Of a stretch of DNA of 64,000 nt, positions 7,278-47,044 are shown piece after piece. The notes under the pieces were generated by a model. The model ran no database searches. It was not told the origin of the DNA and saw only the letters and a list, made by a program, of their open reading frames with translations. The stretch spans positions 6,908-70,907 of the forward strand of contig CAZFVV010000003.1 of the NCBI GenBank assembly GCA_964522165.1, written 5' to 3'. The position numbers and the translations under genes are program-made. The stretch comes from an uncultured Calditrichaceae bacterium (GTDB taxonomy: Bacteria > Calditrichota > Calditrichia > RBG-13-44-9 > J075). Each line of letters starts with the position of its first letter. Positions within the stretch are counted from its first letter, which is position 1.

Positions 7278-7430
7278 TATCAGCAGCAGTACCTTCGTTA
7301 AAACTTATACTCGCTATTCAAAGCTAAAATCAGCGCAGCAATATATTGGATCGCGCCTGGGAAATTATGGGATAGGGTGCGGAATGGGAAGCGGTTTTTT
7401 ATTTTTTGGGAGAAAGAGCGGTTTAAAACA

Positions 7431-7453
7431 AAGCCCTGCCGGAGGTTGGCAGG
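7431..7453 (-). terminator. possible rho-independent terminator downstream of the FG-GAP gene (minus strand)
   Basis: gccctgccggaggttggcagggc hairpin; the minus-strand continuation is T-rich (tttgtttt...). Confidence 0.35.
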
Positions 7454-7560
7454 GCGGAATGTAAAAACAGAATTCGCTGCTGCGCACTTTTTGATTTTGC
7501 TACTCAACAAGTGTCATTCCCGAGCAAAAAACAGAATATCGTTTAACACTGCGGGGAAAA

Positions 7561-9450
7561 TCATTTCACCAGCAGCATTTTGTTCATCGCGCTGTATTCT
7601 CCTGTTCGCAGTCGGTAGAGGTAAATTCCGGCGCTTACCGGGCGCCCGGAATGATCGCTTCCGTCCCACTGCACGGTATAATCGCCCGGAGTTTTGCGCT
7701 CGCTTACCAGGGTGCGTACCCACTGCCCGGTAATATCGTAAATCTTCAATTCCACCCATCCGTAATCGGCGATTCGGAATTCGATGTTCGTGGAAGGGTT
7801 GAAGGGATTGGGATAATTCGCCCGCAACTCGAACGTTCCGGTAAGCCGGGAGGGAGCACTCTCGAGGGAGGTAATCGCCAGGGGAACCAGGCCGGTGCTT
7901 TCCGTGGCCTCGTAATATTGATTCGCGGCAACATTGGTGTAAACGTCCACGATGCCGGACGGCCAGCGAATTCTCAGCGTATCAAGCAGTGCAGCGTCTT
8001 TCAAGCCGAAATGCACCGTCAGGCTGTTGTGCCCGTTGAAGCTGTTCTGCGCGGAGACTTCCCGTAATTGGTACGCCGCGCTTCCGCCGATCATCGCCCG
8101 CGCCTGCACCATCGCCCCGATGCCGGAGCGGTTGGAGCCGGGCGTGGTAGGATCGCCCTTGATCCCCTTACAGCGTATTTTGATCCAGTGGTACCCGTTC
8201 TGGGTCTCATTGTGATAGAGGTACCGGTTCACGCCGTTTCCCATCACGAAAATATCCAACCGCCCGTCATTGTCGTAATCGCCGTTGCTCAGGCCGGTAT
8301 TCACGCCCGCGTCGCTGCCCAGGGTGCCGCCGGTTACCGGGCTGAAGGTTCCGTCGCCGTTGTTGGCGTAAAGACGGTTCACCTGGTTGGCGTCGTTGGA
8401 GACAAAGCAGTCCAGGTCCCCGTCGTTGTCGTAATCTCCCCAGGACGAAGCCAGGGAAATATCCGCGTCGCCGGCAATGGAGCCAACCTCGGCCGCGGTC
8501 ATGCGTTGGAAAGTATTGTCGCCGTTGTTGCGGTAAAGATTGTTTGCCAGGCCCCCCAATCCGCCGCCCCAGTTGGTCAGGTAAGCGTCCAGGTCGCCGT
8601 CGTTGTCATAATCGATCCAGTTCCACACCTGCCCGTCCACCAGGTCGGTGGCAATGGGGCTGTCGGTAATGCGGGCGAAATAGGCGCTGCCGGTCTCCAT
8701 CAGCATGTTTTTGTAAAGATTATCCGGCGCCAGAAAATTGCTGGCCGGTCCGCTGCCAACGAAGAGATCTATATCCCCGTCCTGGTCGTAATCCGACCAG
8801 GCGCCCACGGTGTAAGGAGCTAACCCGGTCACCACCGCGCCTGTGTCAATTTTCGAGAAGGTGAAATTGGGGGGACCGTCGTTCAGGAATAAGTGGCTGG
8901 TGGTATCCGGGTAACCGGCAGGGAGGAATCCGGCCGGCAGGGTGATATACAAATCCAGGTATCCGTCGTTGTTATAATCCCCCCAGGCGCAGGCCCAGCC
9001 GCGATTGGCAAAACTGTTTCCGATAATTCCGCCATCGATCCGGGTAAAAACCTCGCTTCCGTCATTGCGATACAAATAGGACTCCGGGTTAGCGCAGAAA
9101 GCGTCGGGATCGCCGTCGTTGTCATAATCGCCCCAGCTATTCCCGTTTCCGATTGCCGGAACCTGGCCGCTGCCGAGGGCGGTAGTGATCTTGCTGAAAT
9201 TCCCCTCCCCGTTATTGCGATACAGAAAAACGCGGTTGATGTAGAGATCTTCCCACCCGTCGCCGTTGTAATCTACCCAGGTGGCCCCGGCGTATCCTCC
9301 GGACTGGTCGGAAATGATGGGATTGGTGGGATCGGTAATGCGCACCAGGGTGATCTGTGCATACAGCGGCGCTCCTGCGAGGAACGCCGCGAGCAGGGCG
9401 ATGATCGCCACCCGGGCGGATTTATCGAATTTTCCATAGATATTTTTCAT
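7561..9450 (-). CDS. FG-GAP/VCBS repeat (ASPIC/UnbV-like) secreted protein with a T9SS C-terminal sorting domain
   Basis: 629 aa; signal peptide; multiple DYDNDGDLD/DYNGDGWED calcium-binding FG-GAP repeats; C-terminus NYPNPFNPSTNIEF...IYDITGQWV...IYLYRL...KMLLVK. Confidence 0.75.
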   Translation of the reverse strand: MKNIYGKFDKSARVAIIALLAAFLAGAPLYAQITLVRITDPTNPIISDQSGGYAGATWVDYNGDGWEDLYINRVFLYRNNGEGNFSKITTALGSGQVPAIGNGNSWGDYDNDGDPDAFCANPESYLYRNDGSEVFTRIDGGIIGNSFANRGWACAWGDYNNDGYLDLYITLPAGFLPAGYPDTTSHLFLNDGPPNFTFSKIDTGAVVTGLAPYTVGAWSDYDQDGDIDLFVGSGPASNFLAPDNLYKNMLMETGSAYFARITDSPIATDLVDGQVWNWIDYDNDGDLDAYLTNWGGGLGGLANNLYRNNGDNTFQRMTAAEVGSIAGDADISLASSWGDYDNDGDLDCFVSNDANQVNRLYANNGDGTFSPVTGGTLGSDAGVNTGLSNGDYDNDGRLDIFVMGNGVNRYLYHNETQNGYHWIKIRCKGIKGDPTTPGSNRSGIGAMVQARAMIGGSAAYQLREVSAQNSFNGHNSLTVHFGLKDAALLDTLRIRWPSGIVDVYTNVAANQYYEATESTGLVPLAITSLESAPSRLTGTFELRANYPNPFNPSTNIEFRIADYGWVELKIYDITGQWVRTLVSERKTPGDYTVQWDGSDHSGRPVSAGIYLYRLRTGEYSAMNKMLLVK

Positions 9451-32779: not shown

Positions 32780-33493
32780 ATGAACCTCCCCTTCAGCCAG
32801 GACGCCGCTTACCGCTTCGATTCCCTCTACCAGTGGTTGAATCGCAAATACCGTCTGGAACAGGTAGAATTATCCATCGCCGGGGAAAGCTATCGCATTT
32901 TTAAGATTCAAAACATCGATGAAGTTTTAGAGCTGGCGCTAAAAGAGTCTGCCCGGCCGGACGAACACGCGCCCTACTGGGCGGAGATCTGGCCTTCCGC
33001 CCTGGCGCTGGCGCAATTCCTCAGCCGCGAGGTCGATCTGGCAGGCAGAGCCGCGCTGGAGTTAGGCTCCGGCCTGGGATTGGCGGGCATTGTCGCGCAC
33101 CGCTGCGGGGCGGAAGTGCTGCTCAGCGACCTGGAAGACGACGCCCTGCGCCTGGCGGAGCTGAACTGGATCATCAATTTCGGGGAACTGCCCGCCATTA
33201 TGCGTTTAGACTGGCGCAATCCCGCGCTGAACCGGCAGTTCGAAACGCTCCTGGCCGCGGACGTGGCCTACGAAAAGCGCCTCTTCTGGCCGCTCATCGA
33301 CGCCTTCGGAAAATTGCTGGCCCCCGGGGGAGAAATCTGGCTGAGCGAGCCTAACCGCCCGGTGGCCGGGGAGTTTTTCGAAATGTTGCAGAAAGAAGGG
33401 TTCGAGTGGGAAAAATTTACCGAAGCGGTGGAATTCGAGCGGCGAAAAGTCGATATTTCGGTGTACCGGATTGATAAAGACCGTAAAATATAA
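32780..33493 (+). CDS. class I SAM-dependent methyltransferase (Methyltransf_16-like)
   Basis: 237 aa; motif I ALELGSGLGLAGIVAHRCGAEVLLSDLEDDAL. Confidence 0.6.
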   Translation: MNLPFSQDAAYRFDSLYQWLNRKYRLEQVELSIAGESYRIFKIQNIDEVLELALKESARPDEHAPYWAEIWPSALALAQFLSREVDLAGRAALELGSGLGLAGIVAHRCGAEVLLSDLEDDALRLAELNWIINFGELPAIMRLDWRNPALNRQFETLLAADVAYEKRLFWPLIDAFGKLLAPGGEIWLSEPNRPVAGEFFEMLQKEGFEWEKFTEAVEFERRKVDISVYRIDKDRKI

Positions 33494-33526
33494 AGACCTC
33501 AAAGGTTTCTAAAACCTTTGAGGTCT
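33494..33526. repeat. REP-like 33-bp perfect palindrome, copy 1 (AGACCTCAAAGGTTT-ctaa-AAACCTTTGAGGTCT)
   Basis: 15-bp perfect stem; starts one base after the methyltransferase stop. Confidence 0.9.
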
Positions 33527-33542
33527 GGACCCGGCGAAGATA

Positions 33543-33575
33543 AGACCTCAAAGGTTTTCAAAACCTTTGAGGTCT
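33543..33575. repeat. REP-like palindrome, copy 2 (preceded by the ccggcgaagata leader also seen at 39385)
   Basis: agacctcaaaggttttcaaaacctttgaggtct. Confidence 0.9.
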
Positions 33576-33596
33576 GAATACCTGGAGCACCCCAAA

Positions 33597-34231
33597 ATGC
33601 AACAACTCGAAAAATTGAAACCGGGAAATTTCTACCATATTTATAACCGCGGCAATAACCGGGAAGACATCTTCTTCGAAGAGAAAAACTACCCCTACTT
33701 TTTAGAACTATACGCCAAACATATAACGCCAGTAGCGGATACATTCGCCTATTGCCTGATGAGAAACCATTTCCACCTATTGGTGAGGATAAAGGCCTCA
33801 AAGGAGATAAAGACCTCAAAGGTTTTGAAAACCTTTGAGGTCTTACCCCCGGGCGAAGAAAAACTTTTTAACTACTCCCAACCATTCTCAAATTTCTTCA
33901 ACGCTTACCAAAAGCGATCAACCGGCAGTATTTCCGTACCGGCAGTTTATTTCAGGCTCGTTTCGGAAGAAATTGGATAGCTTCTCAGGCCATTCTAAAG
34001 CATGTTATTCACTATATTCACCGCAATCCTCAGAAACATGGTTTTGTCACCGATTTTCGGGAGTATCCGCATTCTTCGTATCATACGCTTTTGGCGGATA
34101 AGAATACCAGGCTGAAACGCCGGGAAGTTCTGGAATGGTTTGGAGGCAGGGCGGCGTTTGAGAGGTTCCATATCGAGAACGGCGTTGGAGACGATGATGA
34201 AATACAGAAAATATTTGGCGACGATGAATGA
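33597..34231 (+). pseudogene. IS200/IS605-like Y1 (HUH) transposase, RAYT-like, disrupted
   Basis: MQQLEKLKPGNFYHIYNRGNNREDIFFEEKNYPYFLELYAKHITPVADTFAYCLMRNHFHLLV (HuH motif). A palindrome copy is translated in-frame at 33811-33843. A -1 frameshift at an A-run near 33920 shifts the remainder (AINRQYFRTGSLFQARF...IHYIHRNPQKHGFVTDFREYPHSSYH...) into another frame ending TGA 34229-34231. Confidence 0.65.
33811..33843. repeat. REP-like palindrome, copy 3, inside the transposase reading frame
   Basis: agacctcaaaggttttgaaaacctttgaggtct, preceded by the partial direct repeat aaggcctcaaaggagata. Confidence 0.9.
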
Positions 34232-34238
34232 ATCGAAA

Positions 34239-34271
34239 AGACCTCAAAGGTTTCCGAAACCTTTGAGGTCT
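34239..34271. repeat. REP-like palindrome, copy 4, 25 bp upstream of the DGR target gene
   Basis: agacctcaaaggtttccgaaacctttgaggtct. Confidence 0.9.
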
Positions 34272-34295
34272 ATAGCCTTAAGGAGAGGATGATTT

Positions 34296-37200
34296 ATGAA
34301 CCGCTGGATTAAACTGCTGATCATTATTACCGCCCTGGTGGTTGCCGGGGCCACCACCTCGTATTGGGCTGGGCCGTTAATTCAATTTATCGGGGTGAAC
34401 AGTTCCCTGATCCAGGGAGTTGCCGACGCCGTTCAAACCGTCATCTGGGCAATTGCCGGTATTGTCGCGATTGTAGGATGGATCCGCCGCCCCCGCCCGG
34501 CGCCCTCAGCCGCCTCGCCCGCGCCGCGCGAAGCTCCCATGGAGCTGGAAGCCGAAAACGGTTCGCTGGTTAATACCGGCGAAATCAAAGACAGCACAAT
34601 CGTAACCGGAAAGGAGGCCCGGGTAGTGCATACCGGAACCTATATCGAGAAAGTGGAAACGCAAATCATCAAGGGCGCGCCCAACGTCGATCCCAAAACC
34701 CTGCGCGTCGCCTACCTCAACCGCTTGTTGTACTTCACCCGCGAGCTGTCCCTGGCCGGAATCGATCCCCAGGCGGCCAGCGAGCCGACCGCCGCGCTCA
34801 AATTAGACGCCGTTTATACCGCCCTCCGCACCATGACCCCGGAGGACCAGGAACGCCTGGAGCAGGGCAAAAAAATGGATCGAGAGACCCGCTATCTCTC
34901 CGCGCTGGAACAGTTGAACCGCCGCCAATACCTGGTATTGTTAGGCGACCCCGGCAGCGGCAAAAGCACCTTTGTCAATTTTGTAGCCCTGTGCTTAACC
35001 GGGGAGGGGCTGGGGATGCCGGATGCCAATCTAACTCTCCTTACCGCCCCGTTGCCGGATGAAGAAAAAAAGGAAAAAGAAGCCCCCCGGCCCCAGCCCT
35101 GGAACCACGGGGCGCTGCTGCCGGTGCGGGTGATTTTGCGCGACTTTGCCGCCCGGGGATTGCCGCGTAGCGGCCAAAAAGCCACCGCCGGGCACCTCTG
35201 GAACTTCATCCGCGCGGAGTTAAAAGCCCTCTCGCTTGAAAATTACGCCGATCATCTGCAACAAGAGTTGCTCGATAAAGGCGGGCTAATCTTGCTCGAC
35301 GGGCTGGATGAGGTGCCGGAAGCGCAGCAGCGCCGCATTCAGATCAAACAGGCGGTGGAAGAATTCAAAGCGGTTTACCGTAAATGCCGCATTCTCATCA
35401 CCAGCCGCACCTACGCCTACCAGAAACAGGATTGGCGGCTGCCGGAGTTCCAGGAAACCATCCTGGCGCCCTTTAGCCACGGGCAAATCGAGGCGTTCGT
35501 GGAACACTGGTACGAACACGTGGGGAGCCTGCGGGGATGGCCGGAAGATAAGTACCGCGGCGGGGCGGCGCTGCTCAAACGCGCCATTTCGGGCAGCCAG
35601 CGGTTAGGGGAGCTGGCCGGGCGTCCGCTGTTGCTGACCTTAATGGCCAGCCTGCACGCCTGGCGGGGCGGAACTCTCCCGGAAAAACGCGAAGAACTCT
35701 ACGCCAACGCGGTGGACCTGCTGTTAGACTGGTGGGAAAAACCCAAAATCGTGCGCGACGCGCAAGGCGCGCCGGTGGTCTTGCAGCCCAGCCTTTCGGA
35801 GTGGCTCAACCTGGGCCGCCAGAAAGTGCGCGACCTGCTCAACGAGCTGGCCTATACCGCCCACGCCGCCCAGCCGGAATTGCAGGGCACCGCGGATATT
35901 CCCGAAAGCAAACTGGTGGAAGGCCTCCTGAAGCTCTCCGGCAATCCGGATCTGAAACCGCAGCGGCTGGTGGAATACCTGAGCCAGCGCGCCGGGCTGC
36001 TGCTGCCCCGCGGGGTGGAAGTCTATACCTTTCCCCACCGCACCTTTCAGGAGTACCTGGCGGCCTGTTATTTGACCGACCACGATTTTCCCGATGCGGT
36101 GGCGGAACTGGCCGGCAACGACCCCAATCGCTGGCGGGAAGTGGCGCTGTTAGCCGCCGCCAAAGCCGCCCGCGGCTCCGCTTCCACCATTTGGGGGTTT
36201 ATCGAGGCGTTATGTTACCGCGACTGCGACAATGCCTCCCCCGCGGCAAAGGCGCTGTGGGGCGCGCACCTGGCCGGGCAGGCCCTGCTGGAAATTGTGG
36301 ATACTTCTAAAATCAGCGAACGGAATCAGCCCAAGGTAGAGCGGGTCAAAACCTGGCTGGTTCACCTGCTCTCCCGGGCGGATTTCCCGGCGCTGGAGCG
36401 CGCCGAGGCCGGGCGCAATCTTGCCCGCTTAGGCGACCCCCGCCGGGAAGCGCTGGAAGTTGACGCCCTGCAATTTTGCTGCGTGCCCGCCGGCCCCTTC
36501 TGGATGGGCAGCGAGGAAGCTGACCGGGAAAAGCCCCTGCATTTAAATGAACAGTTGGATAAACCCTGCTGGATTTCTAAATTTCCCATTACCAACGCCC
36601 AGTACCGCCGGTTCGTGGAAGACGGCGGGTATGGGCAGGAAGGGTACTGGCGGGAAGCAAAGGCGGCAAAGGTGTGGCAGGGGGGAAAGATAAAAGCCTG
36701 GAATGACGATACCCCGCGCGAAGCCCCGTTCGATTTCGGCGCGCCTTTCCACCTTCCCAACCACCCGGTGGTGGGAATTACCTGGTACGAAGCCCTGGCC
36801 TTTACCCGCTGGCTGACCGGGCGCTGGCAAAAAAGGGGCTGGCTGCCCCGGGGCGGGATCGTGCGCCTCCCCTCGGAAGCGGAGTGGGAAAAAGCCGCCC
36901 GCGGGGGAGAGAAAATTCCTTCCGCGCCGGTCGTTCGTTCTGTTCAAGAATGGTCAATTGCCAATTGGCAATTCACAATTGGCAATTGGCAATTAAAAAA
37001 TAATCAACGCCGCTATCCCTGGGGCGACGAACCCGATCCCAACCGCGCCAATTACGCCGATACCGGCATCGGCAGTCCCAGCGCGGTGGGCTGCTTTCCC
37101 GCAGAAGAACGCAGGGGCGATTCGCGAATCGCCCCTGCATACGGATGTGAGGAGATGAGCGGGAACGTATGGGAGTGGTGCCAGACCCAATGGCGGGGAA

Positions 37201-37382
37201 ATTACCAAAAACCGGCGAATGAATCGCTGGAGGGGACGTCAGCCCGTGTTGTTCGCGGCGGCGCGTTCGGCAGCCCCGACGGCAGCGTGCGGTGCGCGTA
37301 TCGCATCTACGTCGTTCCCGATTCTCGTAACTACTACCTCGGGTTTCGTGTGTCGCTGTTCCCATTTACCTCTGGTCTCTGA
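34296..37382 (+). CDS. DGR target protein: N-terminal 2-TM segment, NACHT (STAND) NTPase, helical region, C-terminal FGE-sulfatase/C-type-lectin-fold domain carrying the variable repeat
   Basis: 1028 aa; TM helices in residues ~5-60; Walker A LLGDPGSGKSTF; NACHT Walker B LILLDGLDEV; C-terminal FGE-sulfatase family motifs (HPVVGITWYEALAFTRWL, RLPSEAEWEKAARGG, RRYPWGDE, GNVWEWC, RVVRGGAF); the VR occupies the last ~40 codons. Confidence 0.85.
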   Translation: MNRWIKLLIIITALVVAGATTSYWAGPLIQFIGVNSSLIQGVADAVQTVIWAIAGIVAIVGWIRRPRPAPSAASPAPREAPMELEAENGSLVNTGEIKDSTIVTGKEARVVHTGTYIEKVETQIIKGAPNVDPKTLRVAYLNRLLYFTRELSLAGIDPQAASEPTAALKLDAVYTALRTMTPEDQERLEQGKKMDRETRYLSALEQLNRRQYLVLLGDPGSGKSTFVNFVALCLTGEGLGMPDANLTLLTAPLPDEEKKEKEAPRPQPWNHGALLPVRVILRDFAARGLPRSGQKATAGHLWNFIRAELKALSLENYADHLQQELLDKGGLILLDGLDEVPEAQQRRIQIKQAVEEFKAVYRKCRILITSRTYAYQKQDWRLPEFQETILAPFSHGQIEAFVEHWYEHVGSLRGWPEDKYRGGAALLKRAISGSQRLGELAGRPLLLTLMASLHAWRGGTLPEKREELYANAVDLLLDWWEKPKIVRDAQGAPVVLQPSLSEWLNLGRQKVRDLLNELAYTAHAAQPELQGTADIPESKLVEGLLKLSGNPDLKPQRLVEYLSQRAGLLLPRGVEVYTFPHRTFQEYLAACYLTDHDFPDAVAELAGNDPNRWREVALLAAAKAARGSASTIWGFIEALCYRDCDNASPAAKALWGAHLAGQALLEIVDTSKISERNQPKVERVKTWLVHLLSRADFPALERAEAGRNLARLGDPRREALEVDALQFCCVPAGPFWMGSEEADREKPLHLNEQLDKPCWISKFPITNAQYRRFVEDGGYGQEGYWREAKAAKVWQGGKIKAWNDDTPREAPFDFGAPFHLPNHPVVGITWYEALAFTRWLTGRWQKRGWLPRGGIVRLPSEAEWEKAARGGEKIPSAPVVRSVQEWSIANWQFTIGNWQLKNNQRRYPWGDEPDPNRANYADTGIGSPSAVGCFPAEERRGDSRIAPAYGCEEMSGNVWEWCQTQWRGNYQKPANESLEGTSARVVRGGAFGSPDGSVRCAYRIYVVPDSRNYYLGFRVSLFPFTSGL
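36954..36993. repeat. in-frame AT-rich CAATTG-based repeat inserted within the FGE/CLec domain coding sequence
   Basis: caattgccaattggcaattcacaattggcaattggcaatt encodes ...WSIANWQFTIGNWQLKNN... between the conserved RGG and RRYPWGDE motifs; local GC is far below that of the gene. Confidence 0.6.
37241..37361 (+). repeat. DGR variable repeat (VR) at the 3' end of the target gene
   Basis: 121 bp aligns without gaps to 37886-38006; 18 mismatches, 17 of them at positions where the TR has adenine. Confidence 0.85.
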
Positions 37383-37410
37383 AATCTCTGAACTCTGAAA
37401 CTCTGGAAGA

Positions 37411-37460
37411 TTTCATCCCGATTTGCATCCAGGGATGGATGCGTTTTTGTCGGGATGAAA
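37411..37460. other. nested stem-loop (cruciform-prone) about 30 bp downstream of the target gene stop
   Basis: tttcatcccga-ttt-[gcatcc a ggg a tggatgc]-gtttttg-tcgggatgaaa; flanked by direct repeats gaaactctg (37397 and 37457). Confidence 0.55.
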
Positions 37461-37482
37461 CTCTGAAAAAGGAAAAATTTTT

Positions 37483-37827
37483 ATGGCCCAACCCGAGATG
37501 CCTATTTTTGTTCGTACCTTTGATTTTCTAAGCTGGCTGCTGCCGGCAACCAACCATTTTCCCCGGGCGCACCGGCATTCGTTTACTCAACGCCTGTTGG
37601 ACGCCGGGTTCGATTTACGGGAGCATTTGGAGGAAGCCAATCTGCGCAAAGGAAAAGAGAGGTTAGAGCGATTAACCAGCGCCGATGCAGCGTTAGCCAA
37701 AGTACGATTGTATTTGCGCCTGGCGGTTAAGTGGGGATGGTTTTCCCAGGGACAATACGAACACGTCTCCCGCATGGTGGTGGAGATCGGGCGCCTCCTG
37801 GGCGGTTGGAAGAAAGTAACGGTTTAA
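37483..37827 (+). CDS. avd: Avd-like DGR accessory variability determinant (four-helix-bundle protein, 23S rRNA-IVS protein family)
   Basis: 114 aa, basic, all-helical; FDFLSWLLPATNHFPRAHRHSFTQRLLDAGFDLREHLEEAN resembles the four-helix-bundle (Avd) family; lies between target gene and TR as in canonical DGRs. Confidence 0.65.
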   Translation: MAQPEMPIFVRTFDFLSWLLPATNHFPRAHRHSFTQRLLDAGFDLREHLEEANLRKGKERLERLTSADAALAKVRLYLRLAVKWGWFSQGQYEHVSRMVVEIGRLLGGWKKVTV

Positions 37828-37832
37828 GTTTA

Positions 37833-37865
37833 AGACCTCAAAGGTTTCAAAAACCTTTGAGGTCT
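37833..37865. repeat. REP-like palindrome, copy 5, between avd and TR
   Basis: agacctcaaaggtttcaaaaacctttgaggtct. Confidence 0.9.
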
Positions 37866-37885
37866 TAAGGGGCAGGCTCATACGC

Positions 37886-38006
37886 AGCCCGTGTTGTTCG
37901 CGGCGGCGCGTTCAACAACACCGACAACAACGTGCGGTGCGCGTATCGCAACAACAACGATCCCGATAATCGTAACAACAACATCGGGTTTCGTGTGGCG
38001 CTGTTC
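37886..38006 (+). repeat. DGR template repeat (TR)
   Basis: Non-coding copy of the target 3' end, rich in AAC triplets (aacaacaccgacaacaac...cgcaacaacaacgatcccgataatcgtaacaacaacatc); the adenines are the sites that differ in the VR. Confidence 0.85.
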
Positions 38007-38047
38007 ACGTTTTTCAAAGGGTAAAGGCCTCAAACGACAATGGATAA

Positions 38048-38080
38048 AGACCTCAAAGGTTTCCGAAACCTTTGAGGTCT
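38048..38080. repeat. REP-like palindrome, copy 6, 42 bp downstream of the TR
   Basis: agacctcaaaggtttccgaaacctttgaggtct; preceded by ggcctcaaacga...ataa as at 33791. Confidence 0.9.
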
Positions 38081-38272
38081 AACTTCCGAAGGTTTTTACG
38101 TTGCTGGAAATGCCCGGCGCGCTGGAAATGAGTGGTCGGGGTTCCGGGCCGAAGCGAAAAATGGCCGAGCCTGTTCCGGGCCTTTCCCGGGCTTCCCCGG
38201 GAAAGGGCAAATAACAACCCTCCCGCCTCCTGCCCTATAAGGGGTTGAGGCGGGAGATTTTTATAGCCGAAA

Positions 38273-39307
38273 ATGTTTGACGCATTAATTTCATGGGATA
38301 ATCTTTACCTGGCGTATAAAAAAGCCGGCAAAGGCAAACGCGGGCAGATCGATGTGGCGGATTTTGAGTATGCTCTGGAAGAAAACCTGCTGCGGCTGCA
38401 AGAAGAATTGCGGGATCAGACTTATGCACCGGGTGGTTACCACAGTTTTTACATCCACGAACCCAAACGGCGATTGATCAGCGCTGCGCCGTTCCGTGAC
38501 CGGGTGGTTCACCATGCCCTGTGTAATCTCACTGAACCTGTATTCGAGCAGAGTTTTATTTTTGATTCTTACGCCAATCGGGTGGGAAAAGGAACTCACC
38601 ACGCTTTGGATCGCTGCCAGCAATACGCCCGGCATTACCCCTATGTGCTGCAATGCGACCTGCGGCAGTTTTTTCCCAGTATCGACCATGCGATTTTGCG
38701 CCAAATCTTAATGCGGAAAATCGCTGAACCTGCAGTATTATGGTTGATCGATCAAATTCTCCGCAGCGGCGAGGGCGTATTAAGCGAGGCATACGCAATG
38801 GTCTATTTTCCCGGGGATGATTTGTTCGCCGCCAACCGCCCGCGCGGTTTGCCAATCGGCAATCTGACCAGCCAGTTTTGGGCCAATGTTTATCTCAATC
38901 CCTTTGACCATTTCGTCAAACGAGAGTTACGCTGCAAAGCCTACCTGCGTTACGTGGATGACTTTTTGCTTTTCGGGGAAGACAAAGCCACATTATGGCG
39001 CTGGAAAAAGGCCATTACCAAACGCCTGGAACAGTATCGATTGACAATTCATCCGACGGCTCATCCCCGCCCGGTAGAGGAAGGGATACCGTTTTTAGGA
39101 TTCATCGTCTTCCGGGAAAAGCGACGCTTGAAACGCAGGAAAGGAATTTTTTACCGCAGAAAACTGAAATGCCTGATTTCAGACTACCATTCCGGCGATC
39201 TACCCCTGGAAAAAATTAAGCAGAGCGTGCAGGGATGGATTAACCACACCCGTTACGCTAATACCATCGGGCTGCGCAAAAGCCTGTTAGGAAAAATGAA
39301 AATATAA
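38273..39307 (+). CDS. DGR-type reverse transcriptase
   Basis: 344 aa; RT motifs 1-2 RLISAAPFRDRVVHHAL; motif A LQCDLRQFFPSIDH; DGR-diagnostic motif LPIGNLTSQFWANVYLNPFD (IGxxxSQ); motif C YLRYVDDFLLFG (YVDD); no maturase or endonuclease domains. Confidence 0.9.
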   Translation: MFDALISWDNLYLAYKKAGKGKRGQIDVADFEYALEENLLRLQEELRDQTYAPGGYHSFYIHEPKRRLISAAPFRDRVVHHALCNLTEPVFEQSFIFDSYANRVGKGTHHALDRCQQYARHYPYVLQCDLRQFFPSIDHAILRQILMRKIAEPAVLWLIDQILRSGEGVLSEAYAMVYFPGDDLFAANRPRGLPIGNLTSQFWANVYLNPFDHFVKRELRCKAYLRYVDDFLLFGEDKATLWRWKKAITKRLEQYRLTIHPTAHPRPVEEGIPFLGFIVFREKRRLKRRKGIFYRRKLKCLISDYHSGDLPLEKIKQSVQGWINHTRYANTIGLRKSLLGKMKI

Positions 39308-39323
39308 TAATTCCAAAGGTTGA

Positions 39324-39380
39324 AGACCTCAAAGGTTTCTCCCGTAAGGGATGGCTTACGCCACAAAACCTTTAAGGTCT
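39324..39380. repeat. REP-like palindrome, copy 7 (split; 24-bp insertion in the loop, one stem mismatch)
   Basis: agacctcaaaggttt-ctcccgtaagggatggcttacgccac-aaaacctttaaggtct. Confidence 0.7.
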
Positions 39381-39396
39381 AAATCCGGCGAAGATA

Positions 39397-39429
39397 AGAC
39401 CTCAAAGGTTTCAAAAACCTTTGAGGTCT
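39397..39429. repeat. REP-like palindrome, copy 8, 22 bp upstream of the next gene
   Basis: agacctcaaaggtttcaaaaacctttgaggtct, preceded by ccggcgaagata as in copy 2. Confidence 0.9.
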
Positions 39430-39451
39430 CTTAATAGGAAAGGATCATTCC

Positions 39452-41548
39452 ATGTCCCATAAAAAACCCAACCGCCTCATCAACGAAAAAAGCCCCTACC
39501 TGTTGCAGCACGCGGAAAACCCGGTGGACTGGTATCCCTGGGGCGAGGAAGCGTTTGCCGCCGCGAAGGCGCAGGATAAACCGATTTTTCTCTCCATCGG
39601 CTACTCCACCTGCCACTGGTGCCACGTCATGGCGCATGAATCCTTCGAGGATTCCGCCGTCGCCGCGCTGCTGAATGAGGCCTTCATCAATATCAAGGTG
39701 GACCGGGAGGAGCGCCCGGACGTGGACGACGTGTACATGACCGCCTGCCAGATGCTCACCGGCAGCGGGGGCTGGCCTCTCACCATCATTATGACCCCCG
39801 CGAAAGAGCCGTTTTTCGCCGCCACCTACATTCCAAGGGAGCGCCGTTTCAACCGCTACGGGATGCTGGAGCTGATCCCGCAGATCAAAGATTTGTGGGA
39901 AACCGACCGCGCACGGTTGTTGGAGTCGGCGCAGAAGATTGCCGGGGCGCTTTCGCAGACTGCCGGCGGCCTCGCGGGGGGGCAATTGCACCCGGAAATC
40001 CTGGAGATCGCCTATAGCCAATTGGAAGAGAGCTACGAGCACCGCTACGGGGGATTCAACGCCCGCCCCAAATTTCCCACCCCCCATAATTTGATGTACC
40101 TGCTGCGCTTTTACCGGCGCAGCGGCGACCGCCAGGCCCTGGAAATGGTCGAAACCACCTTGCAGAACATGCGCCGGGGCGGAATTTTCGACCACCTGGG
40201 CTTCGGCTTCCACCGCTACTCCACGGACGAGCGCTGGCTGGCGCCGCATTTCGAGAAAATGCTCTACGACCAGGCCCTCCTGGCCCTGGCTTACACCGAA
40301 GCCTTCCAGGTGACCGGAAAGGAGCAATACCGCGCCGCGGTTCGCGAGATTTTAACCTACGTGCTGCGCGACCTGGCCGATCCCGCGGGAGGATTCTACT
40401 CCGCGGAAGACGCGGACAGCGAGGGCGAAGAAGGCAAATTTTACCTCTGGAGCAATGCAGAAATCCGCGAAACCCTGGGAAAAAGCGCCGGCGATTTCTT
40501 CATCAAGGTATTCAACTGCCGGGAGGATGGAAATTTTTTGGATGAAGCCACCCGCCAGAAAACCGGAACGAGCATCCCCCATTTGCGCAAATCAAGCGCG
40601 GAAATCGCTGCCGAGCTTGCCATCAGCGAGGCGGAGCTGGCGCAGCAGGTCGAGCAGGCGCGCCAAAAGTTGTTCGCGGCGCGGGAGCGGCGGGTTCATC
40701 CCCTCAAGGATGATAAAATCCTCGCCGACTGGAACGGGCTGATGGTTGCGGCGCTGGGCAAGGCGGCGCAGGCGTTTCAGGAACCGGCTTACGCCGCGGC
40801 GGCGGGCCGGGCGGCGGATTTCATCCTGCAAACCCTGCGCACAAAGGAGGGGCGTTTGCTGCACCGCTACCGGCAGGGGGAAACCGCCATCCCGGCTTAC
40901 TTAGACGACTACGCCTTTTTTACCTGGGGATTGTTGGAATTGTATGAAACCACTTTCGAGGCGAAATACCTGCAAGCCGCCGTGGAACTGAACGATATTG
41001 TGCTGCAACACTTCTGGGACGGGCGCGAGGGCGGTTTCTTCTTTACCGCCGATGACGCAGAGGAACTGCTGGTGCGCAAAAAAGAAATCTACGACGGGGC
41101 GGTTCCCTCCGGCAACTCGGTGATGGCGCTCAACCTGCTGCGCCTGGCGCGGATTACCGGGGATATGAAGTTGGAAGCGCGGGCGGCGCAGATCGGCGCG
41201 GCGTTTTCCACAAACGTGAGCCGCTATCCCGCCGGTCATACTTTTTTGATGTCCGCGCTGGATTTCGGGGCAGGCCCGCATTACGAAGTGGTGATCGTGG
41301 GGAAGCCGGGCGCTAAGGATACCCGGGCGATGGCGCAGGCGATCCGGCAGCGCTTTATCCCCAACAAAGTGTTGCTATTCCTGCCCGTGGGACCGGAGAA
41401 TCCCGAAATCAGCCGCATCGCGGAATTTACCCGGGCCATGAAACCGCTGAAAGGCAAAGCCACCGCTTACGTGTGCCGCTCCCACGCCTGCGAGCTGCCC
41501 ACTACGGATGCGGGCAAGATGCTGGACCTGCTCGGCCAGGATCTCTGA
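39452..41548 (+). CDS. thioredoxin-domain protein YyaL/SSP411 family (thioredoxin domain plus six-hairpin glycosidase-like domain)
   Basis: 698 aa; [29 protein letters not shown]...[20 protein letters not shown] is the family N-terminal signature. Confidence 0.8.
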
Positions 41549-42639: not shown

Positions 42640-43719
42640 TCAGTCCGCTCCCAAATTTACCGCGTCTCCGGAACGAATTTCTCCGCTCATGTTGATTGCG
42701 GGTACCGCCGGATCAATCGCCGGGCCGATGCCGGCGTTCCAAAAGGGTGAATCCGGGCGCAAGCGGAAGTCATGGTTGGCAGGGTCGATGAAAATCAGGC
42801 TGTCAGGCAAGTCGCCGCTGAACCAGGGAATTTGAGAACTGTCGCGCGGCGCTTTGACCAAGGCGTCGCCCGGTACGTTGGAGCTGTTGTAATCGCAGGC
42901 CTCGCTTAAAATCCCGTGGTCGGAGGCCGAAAATCCATCCGCTGCCCCGCGTACAATGTTGTTCACCGCAATTATGCGGGCGTTGTCCTTGCTCCTGAAC
43001 CCGTAGTAAAAGCCGATGATGGTGTTGTTGTAGGCGACCACCTCGGCAGATGCCATGGCGATGATCCCGCTCAGCCGCCCCTCCTCCACTTTGCACTCGA
43101 TGATATTGTTGATCATCAAAGCCGGGGATTTCAGGTCGATGGCGTCGCCGGCGCCGGAGGTCAATTCGATGCGCAGGTAGCAATTCTTGATCACGAAAAA
43201 ATCGCCCTCTTCCGGGTCGATGATGTCGTGGCTTCTGCCGCTGCCTTTCAGCATCATCTGGATTCCGTCGATCTCGATGTTGTCGATCTCGATGTCGATG
43301 CTCTCGGAATTCCCGGTGCTGGTTTCGATGATGCGGTATTTGGTATCGTCCCAGCGCGGGCCGGCGCGGTGGGCGGAATCCGCCACCACGCGCACGTAAC
43401 GTTGCCGGTCGGTTACCCAGTGGTCGAACTGCGCCGGGCGGTCCGGCGAGCCGTTGCTGCTGCGGCAAACCGCCACGGCGATTTCGTTGGCGGCCACCAG
43501 GTCGCGCTTCTCCCGCACCGCAAAACCCTCCAGGGAGGTATAATCCGTACCGGGGCCGTTATCGGGATCGATAATTTTGACCACTTCCGTTGGGGGAGAG
43601 GAGGGCGAGGGGGTTGCGGTGGAATCCGGGTTGGAGTAACTGCACGTGCCCCAAAGCATTCCAATCGTAAAGAGGATTCCCAGTTTGTAAATAGATTGAA
43701 TATTCAGGATTTTTAGCAA
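42640..43719 (-). CDS. right-handed parallel beta-helix repeat protein, secreted, lacking the T9SS C-terminal domain present in its paralogs
   Basis: 359 aa; signal peptide; NNIIxC/NNTIIGF beta-helix rungs; ~45% identical to the 43824 paralog but stops right after the ...NLGAD motif where the paralog continues into a Por C-terminal domain. Confidence 0.55.
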   Translation of the reverse strand: MLKILNIQSIYKLGILFTIGMLWGTCSYSNPDSTATPSPSSPPTEVVKIIDPDNGPGTDYTSLEGFAVREKRDLVAANEIAVAVCRSSNGSPDRPAQFDHWVTDRQRYVRVVADSAHRAGPRWDDTKYRIIETSTGNSESIDIEIDNIEIDGIQMMLKGSGRSHDIIDPEEGDFFVIKNCYLRIELTSGAGDAIDLKSPALMINNIIECKVEEGRLSGIIAMASAEVVAYNNTIIGFYYGFRSKDNARIIAVNNIVRGAADGFSASDHGILSEACDYNSSNVPGDALVKAPRDSSQIPWFSGDLPDSLIFIDPANHDFRLRPDSPFWNAGIGPAIDPAVPAINMSGEIRSGDAVNLGAD

Positions 43720-43823
43720 GACGATAATAGTTACCTGTCAGTTGGCGGATCGAATTCCACTGTTATTGGCACATTTCTATGAGCAGGGGCTTTAAACCTG
43801 CGAAAATGAATTTTCGCACTCCT

Positions 43824-45314
43824 TCACGGCAAAAGTACCATTTTTCGGGCTTGAACGGATTTCGCACTTTCTTCTGAGCGGGATTTAACCTCCAGGCGGT
43901 AGAGATACACCCCGCCGGCCGCCGGTTTCCCGTTCTCATCCCGGCCGTCCCACTGCGCCTGGTGCAAACCGGCCGGGAGCTGGCCGGCTAACAGCATTCT
44001 GACTTTCTGTCCCAGGATATTGAAAACGGCCAACTCCACCTCGCTGGCGCCCGAGATCTGAAAGCTGATTGCCGTAGTCGGGTTGAAGGGATTGGGATAA
44101 TTAGGATACAAAATGGCCGATTGCGGCGGCGCTGCGCCCCAATCTCCCAGGCCGGCCGGCGAACCTTCGAAATCCGCTCCCAGGTCGGTGGTGGGGCCGG
44201 AGCGGGGCTCCTGGTCTATATCCAGCTCCGGCACGCCGGCATTGGCCGCCGGCCCGGCCCCGGCGTGGGTAAAAATAATTCCTGCTTTGAGGTGATAATC
44301 GTTGTTGGGTGCGTTCACAAAAATTGCTTCCACTGGAGTAGCGCCGCTGTACCAGGGGGATTGATTGGAGTTCCGGGGAGCCTGCACCAGCGCATGGCCG
44401 GGTTGGTCGGAGCTGTTGTAGTCGGAATCCGTGGTAAAAATGCCCCCGTCGCTGGCGAGGTAGGGTTCCTCCGAGGCCTCCCGGGAAATATTGTTCACCG
44501 CCCGGATCACGCTGCCGTCGCTCAGGATCGCGTTCTTCCAGCCGATAAAGGTGTTGTTGAATACATTTACCTCTCCGCCGTATTTGACCAGAACCCCTTT
44601 CGAGCCGGTACCTTTGATGATGCAATTGAAAATATCCGCGTCGGATTTCAGGTCGATGCCGTAGCCGGTATCCGAGGTGAGGTCCATCCACATGAAGCAG
44701 TTTTTCACCACCAGGTAGCCGCCTTCCTCCGGATCGATCACGTCGTTGCTGTTCCCGCTGCCCCAGATGCGCATCTGCAGACCGTCGATGACCATGTAAT
44801 CGATCTCCACGTCGATACATTCGGAATTGACCGTGGTGTACTCGATCACCCGGTAGCGGGTTTCGTCCCAGCGGGCGGTGGCGCGATGGCCCTCATCAGC
44901 CATTACCACCACATAGTGCTCCGGGTCGGTTACCCAGTCGTAAAACTGCGCCGGGCCGTCCGGAGAGCCGTTGCTGCTGCGGCACAGCGCCACGGCGATC
45001 TCGTTGGCGCTCACGATGTCGCGTTTTTCATTCTGGGCAAAATCGTCTAAGGAAGTATAATCCGTTCCGGGGCCGTTATCGGGGTCGATGATTTTAATGA
45101 CCACGGTGGGGCCGTCGGGGGACTGCCCCCCGGCCACAGGGGAAATCCGCAATCCCTGGCCGTAAATATCCGGGAAGGTGAAAAATGGGGATTGGCCATG
45201 CAGCAGCGCCGAAAATGCGAATATCCAGAAGCAGGTTAACATCCGCGGGAGCATCCCGCGATTCATCCGGTTGAAATCATTGCGGCAATCCATGCCGTTT
45301 CCTCTCGTTTTCAA
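43824..45314 (-). CDS. right-handed beta-helix repeat protein with T9SS C-terminal sorting domain
   Basis: 496 aa (start may be an internal Met); beta-helix rungs; C-terminus ILYPNYPNPFNPTTAISF...VYLYRLEV...KMVLLP. Confidence 0.6.
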   Translation of the reverse strand: MKTRGNGMDCRNDFNRMNRGMLPRMLTCFWIFAFSALLHGQSPFFTFPDIYGQGLRISPVAGGQSPDGPTVVIKIIDPDNGPGTDYTSLDDFAQNEKRDIVSANEIAVALCRSSNGSPDGPAQFYDWVTDPEHYVVVMADEGHRATARWDETRYRVIEYTTVNSECIDVEIDYMVIDGLQMRIWGSGNSNDVIDPEEGGYLVVKNCFMWMDLTSDTGYGIDLKSDADIFNCIIKGTGSKGVLVKYGGEVNVFNNTFIGWKNAILSDGSVIRAVNNISREASEEPYLASDGGIFTTDSDYNSSDQPGHALVQAPRNSNQSPWYSGATPVEAIFVNAPNNDYHLKAGIIFTHAGAGPAANAGVPELDIDQEPRSGPTTDLGADFEGSPAGLGDWGAAPPQSAILYPNYPNPFNPTTAISFQISGASEVELAVFNILGQKVRMLLAGQLPAGLHQAQWDGRDENGKPAAGGVYLYRLEVKSRSEESAKSVQARKMVLLP

Positions 45315-45355
45315 AAATTGTCGAAAAAATCACGCCAAACTTGAAGGTGCGAATC

Positions 45356-47044
45356 TCAGCGCAGCAGGTGCATCCGGCGGGTCTGGGTAAAATCTCCGAT
45401 TTCTATGCGATAAAAATAGATTCCGCTGGCCGCCGCTCTTCCCGCGGCGTCGCGCCCGTCCCATTCCACCCGGTGCTGCCCGGCGGGAAGATATTCCTCA
45501 ACCAGGGCGCGAAGCTTATTGCCCAGGATGTCGAATATCTCCAATCGAACCGCTCCTGGCCGGGAGGTATCGAAAACAATGGCGGTGGAGGGGTTAAAAG
45601 GGTTGGGGTAGTTGGGATGCAAATAAAACTCCCGGATTTCATTGCCGGCCTGGGGCGCAACCGGGGTAGAGCTTTCATATTCGAAAGCCCCCACGTCGTA
45701 ATTGCCCGCCAAACGGGGGTAGCCGTCGTAATCATGGGTTACTTCCGGAATATCCTCCCCCGCGTTAATTGCCGGGCTATTGGCGCTCAGGTGGTAATTA
45801 AACGCGCCGGCGTTTATGAAAAACGAAGCGTCGGCGGATAAATTGCTGGGATGGGATGCGTCGCCTGGCTTAGTTCCCATGAACAGGCAGTTTCGCAGAT
45901 CGAATCCCGCAGAATTATAACCCCCGGAAACGTTCTGGAAATACTCCCCGCTGCCGCCCTTATCAAAAGTACTGTTATAGACGTGCAGGATTTCTACCCC
46001 GTCTTCATTGCGGAACGCTTTGTCGTTGTTATAAACAATGCTGTTAATAATGGTCACGTAAGCGCCCCCGCGGCTGCCCGGCCCGCGCAGGCGGAAGGCG
46101 ATTTCGTTGTCATAAACTTTCACCGCGATCAGTTGGCATTCCACTTTTTCTTTGATGTTGAACGCCGCCCGGTTGTTGATGTAGCCGGGTACGAAGCCGT
46201 AGGATTCCACGTTGCGAATGGTAATGCGGGCGCGGTAGGCGGTTCCCACCGCCTCTTCGTTGATTTTGGTATCCACCCCGTTCTCCCCGGGGATTTCCCC
46301 GGCGTTCCAGCCCGCGGCGTTGGCCGGCAGCGGCCCGGTCCACAGTTTGCAATTTTCGATCAGCACGTTGTCCCACAACGGGTAGCCCCGGTCCGGGTCG
46401 GTCTGGAAACAGTCCCCGGAAACGTAATAAATGTTGCACCCGCGAACAGTCAGGTTATTCTCTCCCGCGGCCACGATGCCGTGCGCATCCACCTGGTTGC
46501 TGATGGAACCGGCCAGGAAGTGGTGAATTTCGCAATTTTCGATCAACACGTCATCGGCCATGCTGAGGTCGATGCCGTCTTTGGTGCCGTTTTTGATCTC
46601 GCAATTGCGCACAATCGCGTTGTCGCCGCCGGAGCGAATTCGCACCACGTCGGCGTTGCCGAACTGCCCGTCGATAATGAATCCGTCGATGATATGATAA
46701 GCGTGATTCAGGTAGAGCACCTGCCCGGCATTAGTTACCAGCGGGCGGTTGGCCGGATCGTATGCTTTGACGGTGATGGGCTGGGCAACGGTCCCGTCCC
46801 GCTGGCTGGTAATCTGGTCCGCATACACCCCGGGGAGCACCAGCACCACGTCGCCGGGCTGGGCGGCGTCCATGGCCGAGCTGAAATTGTTAAAGGGGCT
46901 GGAAAAGGTTCCGTTCCCGTTGGCGGGCACATCATCGAGGTAATATTCCGCGGCGCTCAAGCACGCCGCACATCCCATAATCAGCAAAACAAAACCGACC
47001 GGTAAAATCTTAGCCATCCTTGCGCTCCTTATTTTCGTCTTCAT
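45356..47044 (-). CDS. right-handed beta-helix (pectate-lyase-fold) protein with T9SS C-terminal sorting domain
   Basis: 562 aa; signal peptide; repeated NCxIxN/GxxxxNNxF rungs; C-terminus HPNYPNPFNPSTAIVF...IYFYRIEI...RMHLLR. Confidence 0.6.
   Translation of the reverse strand: MKTKIRSARMAKILPVGFVLLIMGCAACLSAAEYYLDDVPANGNGTFSSPFNNFSSAMDAAQPGDVVLVLPGVYADQITSQRDGTVAQPITVKAYDPANRPLVTNAGQVLYLNHAYHIIDGFIIDGQFGNADVVRIRSGGDNAIVRNCEIKNGTKDGIDLSMADDVLIENCEIHHFLAGSISNQVDAHGIVAAGENNLTVRGCNIYYVSGDCFQTDPDRGYPLWDNVLIENCKLWTGPLPANAAGWNAGEIPGENGVDTKINEEAVGTAYRARITIRNVESYGFVPGYINNRAAFNIKEKVECQLIAVKVYDNEIAFRLRGPGSRGGAYVTIINSIVYNNDKAFRNEDGVEILHVYNSTFDKGGSGEYFQNVSGGYNSAGFDLRNCLFMGTKPGDASHPSNLSADASFFINAGAFNYHLSANSPAINAGEDIPEVTHDYDGYPRLAGNYDVGAFEYESSTPVAPQAGNEIREFYLHPNYPNPFNPSTAIVFDTSRPGAVRLEIFDILGNKLRALVEEYLPAGQHRVEWDGRDAAGRAAASGIYFYRIEIGDFTQTRRMHLLR

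Follow-up and report, generated by a model that had tools for sequence, protein, structure and literature searches.

This work concerns a reverse transcriptase (RT) gene located on the forward strand of a 64,000 nucleotide (nt) stretch of DNA from an uncultured Calditrichaceae bacterium (contig CAZFVV010000003.1; the entire stretch is referred to as the window, and positions are those of the window unless a different locus is named). The open reading frame (ORF) at 38273-39307 very probably encodes the RT of a chromosomal diversity-generating retroelement (DGR), present as a complete cassette with all components on one strand. The cassette is collinear on the plus strand, in the order target gene, variable repeat (VR), accessory gene avd, template repeat (TR), spacer and RT gene (Table 1). 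The assignment is carried by the class of the RT, by its intact catalytic and adenine-mutagenesis residues, by the adjoining Avd protein, by the mutational signature of the TR/VR pair and by three covarying RNA helices, each of which was observed directly.

The ORF listing agrees exactly with the position and the length (344 amino acids, aa) given in the first-pass annotation. In the translated ORF, motif A (QCDLRQFFPSIDH) contains QCDLRQ with D129, motif 4 (RGLPIGNLTSQFWANVY) reads LPIGNLTSQF, in which IGNLTSQ corresponds to residues 195-201, and motif C (YLRYVDDFLLFG) contains YVDD with D229 and D230. When aligned by phmmer to the Bordetella RT (bRT, 8ub7_A), D129, D229 and D230 are located opposite D138, D215 and D216, which form the bRT active site according to bioRxiv 10.1101/2023.10.23.563531. 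I195 and Q201 face I181 and Q187 (the bRT counterpart of IGNLTSQ being IGSLTSQ, residues 181-187), while R67, located within EPKRRLIS, faces R74. Experimental work has shown that R74 and I181 of bRT promote adenine mutagenesis, and has defined [I/V/L]GxxxSQ as the DGR signature, as opposed to QGxxxSP in group II intron and retroviral RTs (PMC7826257). None of the six residues (D129, D229, D230, R67, I195 and Q201) varies among 30 aligned relatives. The first-pass annotation had read motif 4 as DGR-type IGxxxSQ and not QGxxxSP, had identified YVDD as motif C, and had called for a check of the aspartates of motifs A and C; both readings agree with the bRT alignment, and the aspartates are intact. 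Its further claim that intron and retron accessory domains are lacking stands for the DNA-binding and endonuclease domains and for retron-type extensions, but not for the region equivalent to the thumb or domain X. RVT_1 (residues 65-262, E 6.6e-17) is the sole Pfam match; residues ~265-340 form thumb helices in an AlphaFold2 model that align with the bRT thumb, and this region also aligns with the group II RT/maturase model through position 326 of 353.

Placement of the protein among RT classes was approached by sequence, curated models, fold and phylogeny, all of which put it inside the DGR class, as the first-pass annotation had claimed in calling it brt-like. In a search of all PDB chains with the RT as query, bRT was the best match (158 bits, E 3.5e-45), the best group II intron RT being 6ar1 (72.8 bits, E 2.8e-19), and no chain of a retron, abortive infection (Abi) or defence-associated RT (DRT) system reached 1e-3. 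The AlphaFold2 model (mean predicted local distance difference test score, pLDDT, 73.5) was used for a Foldseek search of the PDB, in which the top five matches were bRT cryo-EM structures (E 4e-20 to 8e-17, template modelling score 0.66-0.78), followed by group II RTs (~1e-13) and then by G2L4, DRT9, DRT2 and retron RTs. A neighbour-joining tree was constructed from the query, eight relatives, the DGR RT of a Fischerella plasmid, four phage DGR RTs, bRT and three annotated group II RTs. In 200/200 bootstraps, the query grouped together with its relatives and the DGR RTs, to the exclusion of the group II RTs, so that the tree which the earlier annotation had suggested as a check placed the protein within the DGR clade and not outside it. 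Motif 4 splits cleanly along the same division, with [I/L]GxxTSQ in all sequences of the DGR side and QGxxxSP in all group II sequences. The tree covers these two RT classes, and the exclusion of retron, Abi and UG RTs rests on the sequence search, the scores of the hidden Markov models (HMMs) and the fold ranks.

Group II RTs are the nearest class other than DGR RTs, as seen from 6ar1, from the Foldseek values and from the NCBIfam group II RT/maturase model TIGR04416 (E 4.3e-39), which could be taken to indicate a group II intron RT/maturase or a free-standing group II-like RT. This identity is extremely unlikely, as the TIGR04416 score of 134.6 bits falls far under the cut-off of 300, bRT scores double the value of 6ar1, the motif is IGNLTSQ instead of QGxxxSP, DNA-binding and endonuclease domains are absent, and the bootstraps separate the query from the three group II RTs. 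Furthermore, an Rfam scan of 33000-40000 at E up to 1 retrieved no DGR, group II or retron RNA family and hence no intron RNA, the only matches in this interval being spurious miRNA families on a CAATTG repeat and on the repetitive extragenic palindromic (REP) sequences described below.

Low-scoring HMM matches, among them Drt3a, retron St85 and UG17, together with the adjoining NACHT protein, which matches the NCBIfam EruA antiphage NACHT model (through its P-loop only, at 33 bits versus 1000), could instead point to a retron or defence RT (Drt/UG/Abi) acting against phages with the NACHT protein as effector. Hardly any weight can be given to such a role. Every HMM match is far under its cut-off (50.9 versus 200 for Drt3a, 46.9 bits versus 235 for retron St85 and 41.4 versus 390 for Drt2, with Drt2-5 all falling far short), retron and DRT structures rank under all bRT and group II structures, and the Rfam scan revealed no retron RNA. 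The cassette, moreover, includes Avd and a TR/VR pair with an adenine signature, and to our knowledge this combination is present in no retron or DRT system. The best RT match in PADLOC was to the generic 'RT' model PDLC01136 (160 bits); as a system was not identified, this result was not used. The NACHT-containing target may nonetheless serve as a defence sensor, which is compatible with the assignment to a DGR.

The adenine signature was determined by comparison of TR and VR, the latter being located in the FGE-sulfatase domain of the target (aa 729-1019, Pfam 5e-43), which adopts a C-type-lectin (CLec) fold; the NACHT NTPase domain of the same protein spans aa 212-407 (Pfam 1.5e-09), and this architecture is also found in two relatives (L009 and L012; compared loci are designated by L-numbers). 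Across the core of the repeat (37240-37350), 17 of 17 mismatches represent an adenine in TR that is G, T or C in VR, at codon position 1 or 2 and mostly in AAC codons. Altogether, 18 of the 30 TR adenines are altered in VR, and the 17 adenine-containing TR codons allow ~10^16.5 possible peptides. A search of both strands of the window with the non-adenine positions of TR as template detected no further VR. In the 3' part of VR, which resembles the initiation of mutagenic homing (IMH) element, non-adenine differences from TR occur at 37353 and 37364, alongside an A-to-C change at 37362, and the likeness between the repeats ends entirely after 37367. As 'CACG' in TR versus 'CCCA' in VR recurs in relatives, these differences are fixed rather than products of mutagenesis, and those at 37353 and 37364 are as expected for IMH versus IMH*. 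The cassette is surrounded by chromosomal genes for housekeeping and signalling functions, such as UvrD/PcrA, Tgt and histidine kinases, with no phage genes among them.

Comparison of the avd-RT intergenic region with that of relatives revealed a conserved element immediately behind TR. The RNA encoded around TR was then analysed by means of an iterated nhmmer profile, which located this spacer element in 55 loci, always on the RT strand, and 0-152 nt after the TR end in 34 relatives with a mapped TR, whatever the gene order. RNAalifold, applied to 23 loci, predicted a long-range duplex that closes TR and a stem-loop in the spacer, with compensatory changes in 15 of 20 predicted pairs. Within these two helices 93.2% of alignment cells pair, as compared to 34-49% after a shift of the 3' partner by 1-3 columns; none of 500 shuffles reached the observed covariation, and 6/6 core pairs display compensatory changes. 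For a third helix, in which the 3' end of TR pairs with the spacer, 93.6% of cells pair across 20 loci versus 42-64% when slid, and seven of eight pairs are compensated. All three covarying helices are intact in the window. VR has CCATTTAC where TR has CGTTTTTC and is unable to form the primer duplex; since only TR can form it, information would flow from TR to VR. The cryo-EM structure of the bRT-Avd-RNA complex contains a cPRT-stop duplex, an Avd-binding stem-loop and a TR:Sp template:primer duplex (Sp being the spacer), and predictions for 207 other DGRs include the duplex and stem-loop (bioRxiv 10.1101/2023.10.23.563531). The three helices described here correspond to these Bordetella elements. 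A separate observation concerns the TR-end:spacer alignment (A5). Although the duplex is otherwise well paired, 8 of 20 loci have a non-standard pair at columns 32 and 88 (38010 and 38161 in the window), in many cases A-A or C-A, and this mismatch close to the priming site is possibly conserved.

Homology with the DGR of the Bordetella phage is the basis for inferring that priming occurs in cis, what Avd does, that cDNA homes to VR, that the target acts as a sensor, and any activity at the present day. The transcript of approximately 37866-38272, comprising the upstream strand, TR and spacer, would fold such that the segment 5' of TR pairs with the spacer, and the TR 3' end would pair with the spacer sequence GAAAAATG. 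The RT and pentameric Avd would then bind this RNA, cDNA would be primed in cis at the TR 3' end, and TR would be copied faithfully except opposite adenines. The adenine-mutagenised cDNA would subsequently replace VR and recode up to 17 codons (~10^16 variants). The recoded residues are expected to lie on the face of the C-terminal lectin-fold domain that binds ligands, in a NACHT NTPase anchored in the membrane that is a putative sensor in conflict or immunity.

The DGR RNA is interrupted by a repeat that is abundant at this locus. The 33-nt palindrome AGACCTCAAAGGTTTnnnAAACCTTTGAGGTCT, a REP sequence, occurs in seven perfect copies versus 0.00 expected in the window, and all copies, as well as half-sites, are located within 33494-39429. 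Four copies lie upstream of the target gene, one separates avd from the DGR RNA, one separates TR from the spacer, and one, beside a long-loop variant, follows the RT gene, with the copies at 37833-37865 and 38048-38080 bracketing the DGR RNA. Due to the REP-containing insertion, the spacer starts 80 nt after TR; in 22 of the 34 relatives with a mapped TR this distance is at most 30 nt, and in the others 59-152 nt. The insertion leaves the three RNA helices intact and represents a natural test of the tolerance of the TR-spacer linker. The palindrome is present at the TR junctions of no relative. The idea that REP hairpins are a general, intrinsic part of DGRs was considered and rejected, given that relatives do without the palindrome at these junctions and that the covarying helices exclude it.

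The palindromes likely originate from a probable REP-associated tyrosine transposase (RAYT) gene, present as a pseudogene upstream of the target gene and flanked by REPs at 33494, 33543 and 34239. Its conceptual protein carries an HUH motif (HFH) and a YIHRNP tyrosine region; REP_Tyr_transpos is its only NCBIfam match (1.5e-15, 57.3 bits, under the cut-off of 80), and it matches TnpA-REP of the PDB (4er8) at 7.9e-05. The arrangement resembles E. coli TnpA-REP (PDB 4er8) and REPINs in that intergenic palindromes cluster around a single Y1/HUH transposase-like gene, but differs from REP/RAYT systems in that the RAYT gene is frameshifted and contains an in-frame REP, and in that seven copies are situated at one DGR cassette. 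The REPs are regarded as colonisation by a mobile element, of which there are earlier examples in what is probably the same DGR clade, rather than as a component of the DGR mechanism. In locus L012, whose RT is 72% identical, an intact RAYT gene encoding a 49% identical protein directly follows the RT gene (5893-5991, 7033-7900 of that locus). This gene reads through an in-frame repeat element at the same position as the RAYT of the window, and has on its flanks ~100-nt elements whose termini (AGACCTnnnAGGTTT) are related, a fourth copy of these elements being located between spacer and RT gene. A RAYT-like gene is located beside the cassette in three of 34 loci of at least 8 kb (L012, L051 and L071), those of L051 and L071 being distant (28-30% identity) and without REP-like repeats. 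A general association between RAYTs and DGRs was dismissed as weak or anecdotal, and the co-occurrence may be due to chance or be lineage-specific. Short-read assemblies of the same organism (L001-L004) break at REPs, yielding contigs of ~1.3 kb that contain only the RT gene and end in REP halves; because of these breaks, the DGR is fragmented in public assemblies.

Several points weigh against the assignment of the ORF to a functional DGR. The RT tree holds few references, from only two RT classes. Only a single VR allele is represented for the strain; with the final 160 aa of the target as query, no population VR variants were found, the best other sequence being 58% identical. The insertion of 75 nt between TR and spacer could impair RNA folding or priming, and the hairpin that follows VR is A+T-rich and moderately stable (z -2.6). 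The cassette could consequently be a true DGR that is now a relic, disabled for instance by the REP insertion or by lost expression, as would suit the location of this insertion in a part of the DGR RNA that measures 0-30 nt in most relatives, the decay of the neighbouring RAYT itself, the lack of alternative VR alleles in the search, and the damage by mobile elements documented for DGR loci of what is probably the same clade (PMC10907252). We consider a relic improbable, as the ORFs of RT, Avd and target are intact with all catalytic and signature residues in place, the three covarying helices are preserved, and the insertion falls in a linker of variable length, which spans 59-152 nt in 12 of the 34 relatives whose TR was mapped. 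In addition, a ~95% identical strain (L005) retains the same TR together with the same REP insertion, and its change at the TR end, where G38009 is replaced by A, converts a G-U pair with the spacer to A-U.

A feature of potential relevance to the recipient site of the DGR is a tandem array that immediately follows VR and reads CTCTGG TCTCTGA AATCTCTGA ACTCTGA AACTCTGG (37370-37406), its second unit supplying the TGA stop codon of the target gene. The VR flanks of relatives (L007-L081) contain four to seven units of 7-8 nt with the core YCTG(A/G), which start in the last codons and likewise provide the stop codon. In this RT clade an array follows every mapped VR and no TR. Across 35 loci, CTG(A/G) occurs 4.3 times per 70 nt after VR versus 0.37 after TR and 0.87 in the background, with spacings of 7 or 8 nt, and in multi-target loci with the YCTGR core both VR copies carry the array in 4/4 cases. 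No array of at least five units was obtained in 200 dinucleotide shuffles of the window. Arrays that do not adjoin a mapped VR come mostly from loci for which the mapping gave no TR/VR pair, and several lie ~50 nt from the start of a contig. Outside the clade, three phage DGRs possess 0-1 CTGR and a G+C-rich hairpin instead, two of them with a 7-nt TTGR periodicity by eye. In Aeromonas phage phiARM81mr (L093, 4321-4350) an array of similar period with the core TTG(A/G) follows VR, and in Fischerella plasmid 3 (L097, 4443-4500 and 5502-5560) a ~8-nt CTTT(A) periodicity follows both VRs. A periodic array may therefore be a general feature whose sequence varies by lineage.

Based on its position, VR specificity and conservation, the array is a candidate recipient-site signal. 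It may be the functional counterpart, in this clade, of the VR-specific IMH half and the cruciform, and could act as a binding platform that directs cDNA to VR. In the DGR papers that were open to searching or reading, no description of such an array was found. The more far-reaching proposal, that the array is an undescribed recipient-site determinant and that the REP hairpins bracketing the DGR RNA have additionally been co-opted as RNA boundaries, is put forward tentatively, as a possibility that we judge to be somewhat doubtful. If the array does mark the recipient site, it would bear on the targeting of cDNA to VR, the least understood step of DGR function. Downstream of the array lies a compound hairpin (37411-37460), placed where Bordetella and Legionella DGRs have an inverted repeat. 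When folded as DNA it has z = -2.63; it is not G+C-rich, and its function is putative. Many relatives have a G+C-rich hairpin after the array, and an inverted repeat or hairpin downstream of VR is present in only about one third of DGRs (PMC5758913).

With regard to its distribution, the RT has at least 8000 relatives in the protein database, the best at 70-77% identity, and many of them derive from metagenome-assembled genomes named Chloroflexi or Anaerolineae by their sources. An identical RT protein is present in one metagenome of the Joint Genome Institute (JGI) and in three Sequence Read Archive (SRA) assemblies, while phage records yielded no relative above 40% identity. The family was surveyed in 80 metagenomic loci with RTs 52-76% identical to the query. 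Among those of 8 kb or more, 31/33 have both Avd and a CLec gene and 19/33 have NACHT; among those of 2.5 kb or more, 44 of 68 contain a TR/VR pair in which 80% or more of the mismatches derive from adenine.

The closest solved relative is the DGR of Bordetella phage BPP-1 (bRT, Avd, TR and Mtd; PDB 8ub7-8ubf), at ~32% identity. The two have in common a short RT composed only of N-terminal extension, finger, palm and thumb, the I-G-x-L-T-S-Q motif, the R74 and I181 equivalents, Avd, adenine-only TR/VR changes, and a VR at the C-terminus of a C-type-lectin-fold domain, as well as, at the level of the RNA, the upstream:spacer duplex, the stem-loop 3' of TR and the TR-end:spacer duplex. In contrast to BPP-1, the present cassette is chromosomal rather than phage-borne, its order is target-avd-TR-RT with TR upstream of the RT gene, its target is a 1028-aa NACHT NTPase and not a tail-fibre protein, and its VR is flanked by a YCTGR array and an A+T-rich hairpin in place of a G+C-rich inverted repeat. 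Among annotated records, the closest RT is that of Fischerella sp. NIES-4106 plasmid 3 (AP018301.1; 48.8% identity, E 8e-96), which has identical IGNLTSQ and YVDD motifs and groups with the query clade in the neighbour-joining tree, although in that DGR TR is located downstream of the RT gene, two targets are present, and the arrays have CTTT(A) as their core where the window has CTCTG(A).

Multicellular bacteria, filamentous Chloroflexi among them, were described in 2024 to carry DGRs whose targets are NACHT/STAND-CLec 'putative antigen sensors' (PMC10907252). The present cassette shares with these DGRs (clade 5/5D; Roux 2021, Dore 2024) a target with an N-terminal extension or transmembrane segment, a central NACHT domain and a single C-terminal CLec domain with VR, in addition to Avd, a chromosomal setting and relatives often named Chloroflexi or Anaerolineae; the likeness to clade 5/5D is based on target architecture and on the taxon names given to relatives. 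The DGR loci of that study contain, as here, repeats (MITE-like) and pseudogenised transposases. Clade 5D differs in commonly having two targets, as compared to one in the window, and its repeats are terminal repeats of insertion sequences and not REPs of a RAYT. The RT is thus intact and ordinary for a DGR enzyme, and its cassette belongs to a type that is already published (described 2020-2024). It adds one well-formed cellular DGR of the NACHT/STAND-diversifying type and matters little in itself. The locus is useful as a clean and complete example in which VR, IMH, avd, TR, three RNA helices and RT are mapped, the VR-flank array being the one feature that may deserve attention, and the observations made alongside the RT are of more use than the RT.

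Table 1. Features of the DGR locus and of the repeats associated with it, in window coordinates.
Feature	Position	Strand	Remarks
Probable RAYT pseudogene	33598-34231 (region 33494-34271)	+	frameshift near 33910; in-frame REP insert 33793-33845
DGR target gene	34296-37382	+	1028 aa; two N-terminal hydrophobic segments, NACHT, helical middle, C-terminal FGE/C-type-lectin domain
VR	37240-37367	+	last ~42 target codons; 84% identical to TR, offset 645 nt
IMH-like 3' constant part of VR	37339-37367	+	G+C-rich, GGGTTTCGTGTGTCGCTGTTCCCATTT
Tandem array, five 7-9-nt units, core CTCTG(A/G)	37370-37406	+	VR flank only
Compound hairpin 3' of VR	37411-37460	+	outer stem 37411-37421/37450-37460
Inner stem of hairpin, GCATCCA/TGGATGC	37425-37431/37436-37442	+	followed by GTTTTTG
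avd	37483-37827	+	114 aa; Pfam bAvd 3.9e-18; NCBIfam DivGenRetAVD equivalog, 89.9 bits versus cut-off 80
REP palindrome AGACCTCAAAGGTTTnnnAAACCTTTGAGGTCT	37833-37865		between avd and DGR RNA
Long-range duplex closing TR, 5' strand	37869-37879	+	pairs with spacer 38167-38178
TR	37885-38012	+	128 nt, 30 adenines, rich in AAC codons; between avd and RT gene
TR 3' end CGTTTTTC : spacer GAAAAATG	38008-38015 : 38156-38163	+	candidate template:primer duplex
REP-containing insertion, ~75 nt	38021-38095	+	between TR end and spacer; REP core 38048-38080
Spacer (Sp) RNA region	38096-38272	+	between TR and RT gene
Spacer stem-loop	38103-38105/38153-38155 and 38112-38117/38144-38149	+	
DGR reverse transcriptase	38273-39307	+	ATG start, 344 aa
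REP copies after RT stop	39325-39379 (long-loop), 39397-39429 (perfect)		

A number of minor observations were made in the course of this analysis. In the contig of strain L005 (Logan SRR30932925), the target gene is joined directly to TR and the REP beside it (positions 3008-3202 of that contig), and the predicted protein (P0122) accordingly ends with a TR-encoded peptide. It was not accepted as a second or naive VR allele, since the contig exits the target gene at the shared 5' end of the repeats, which indicates an assembly path or chimera. Within the sequence for the lectin-fold domain of the target, a tandem 21-nt duplication with CAATTG palindromes (36955-36996, coding IANWQFTIGNWQL) gives rise to a spurious Rfam miRNA match. 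Finally, three adjacent genes on the minus strand (42640-47044) encode secreted-looking proteins. Those at 43824-45314 and 45356-47044 specify a C-terminal FlgD-Ig-like domain, resembling sorting domains of the type IX secretion system (T9SS), the latter with an additional right-handed beta-helix domain, and the products of 42640-43719 and 43824-45314 have long conserved stretches in common by eye and look like paralogues.

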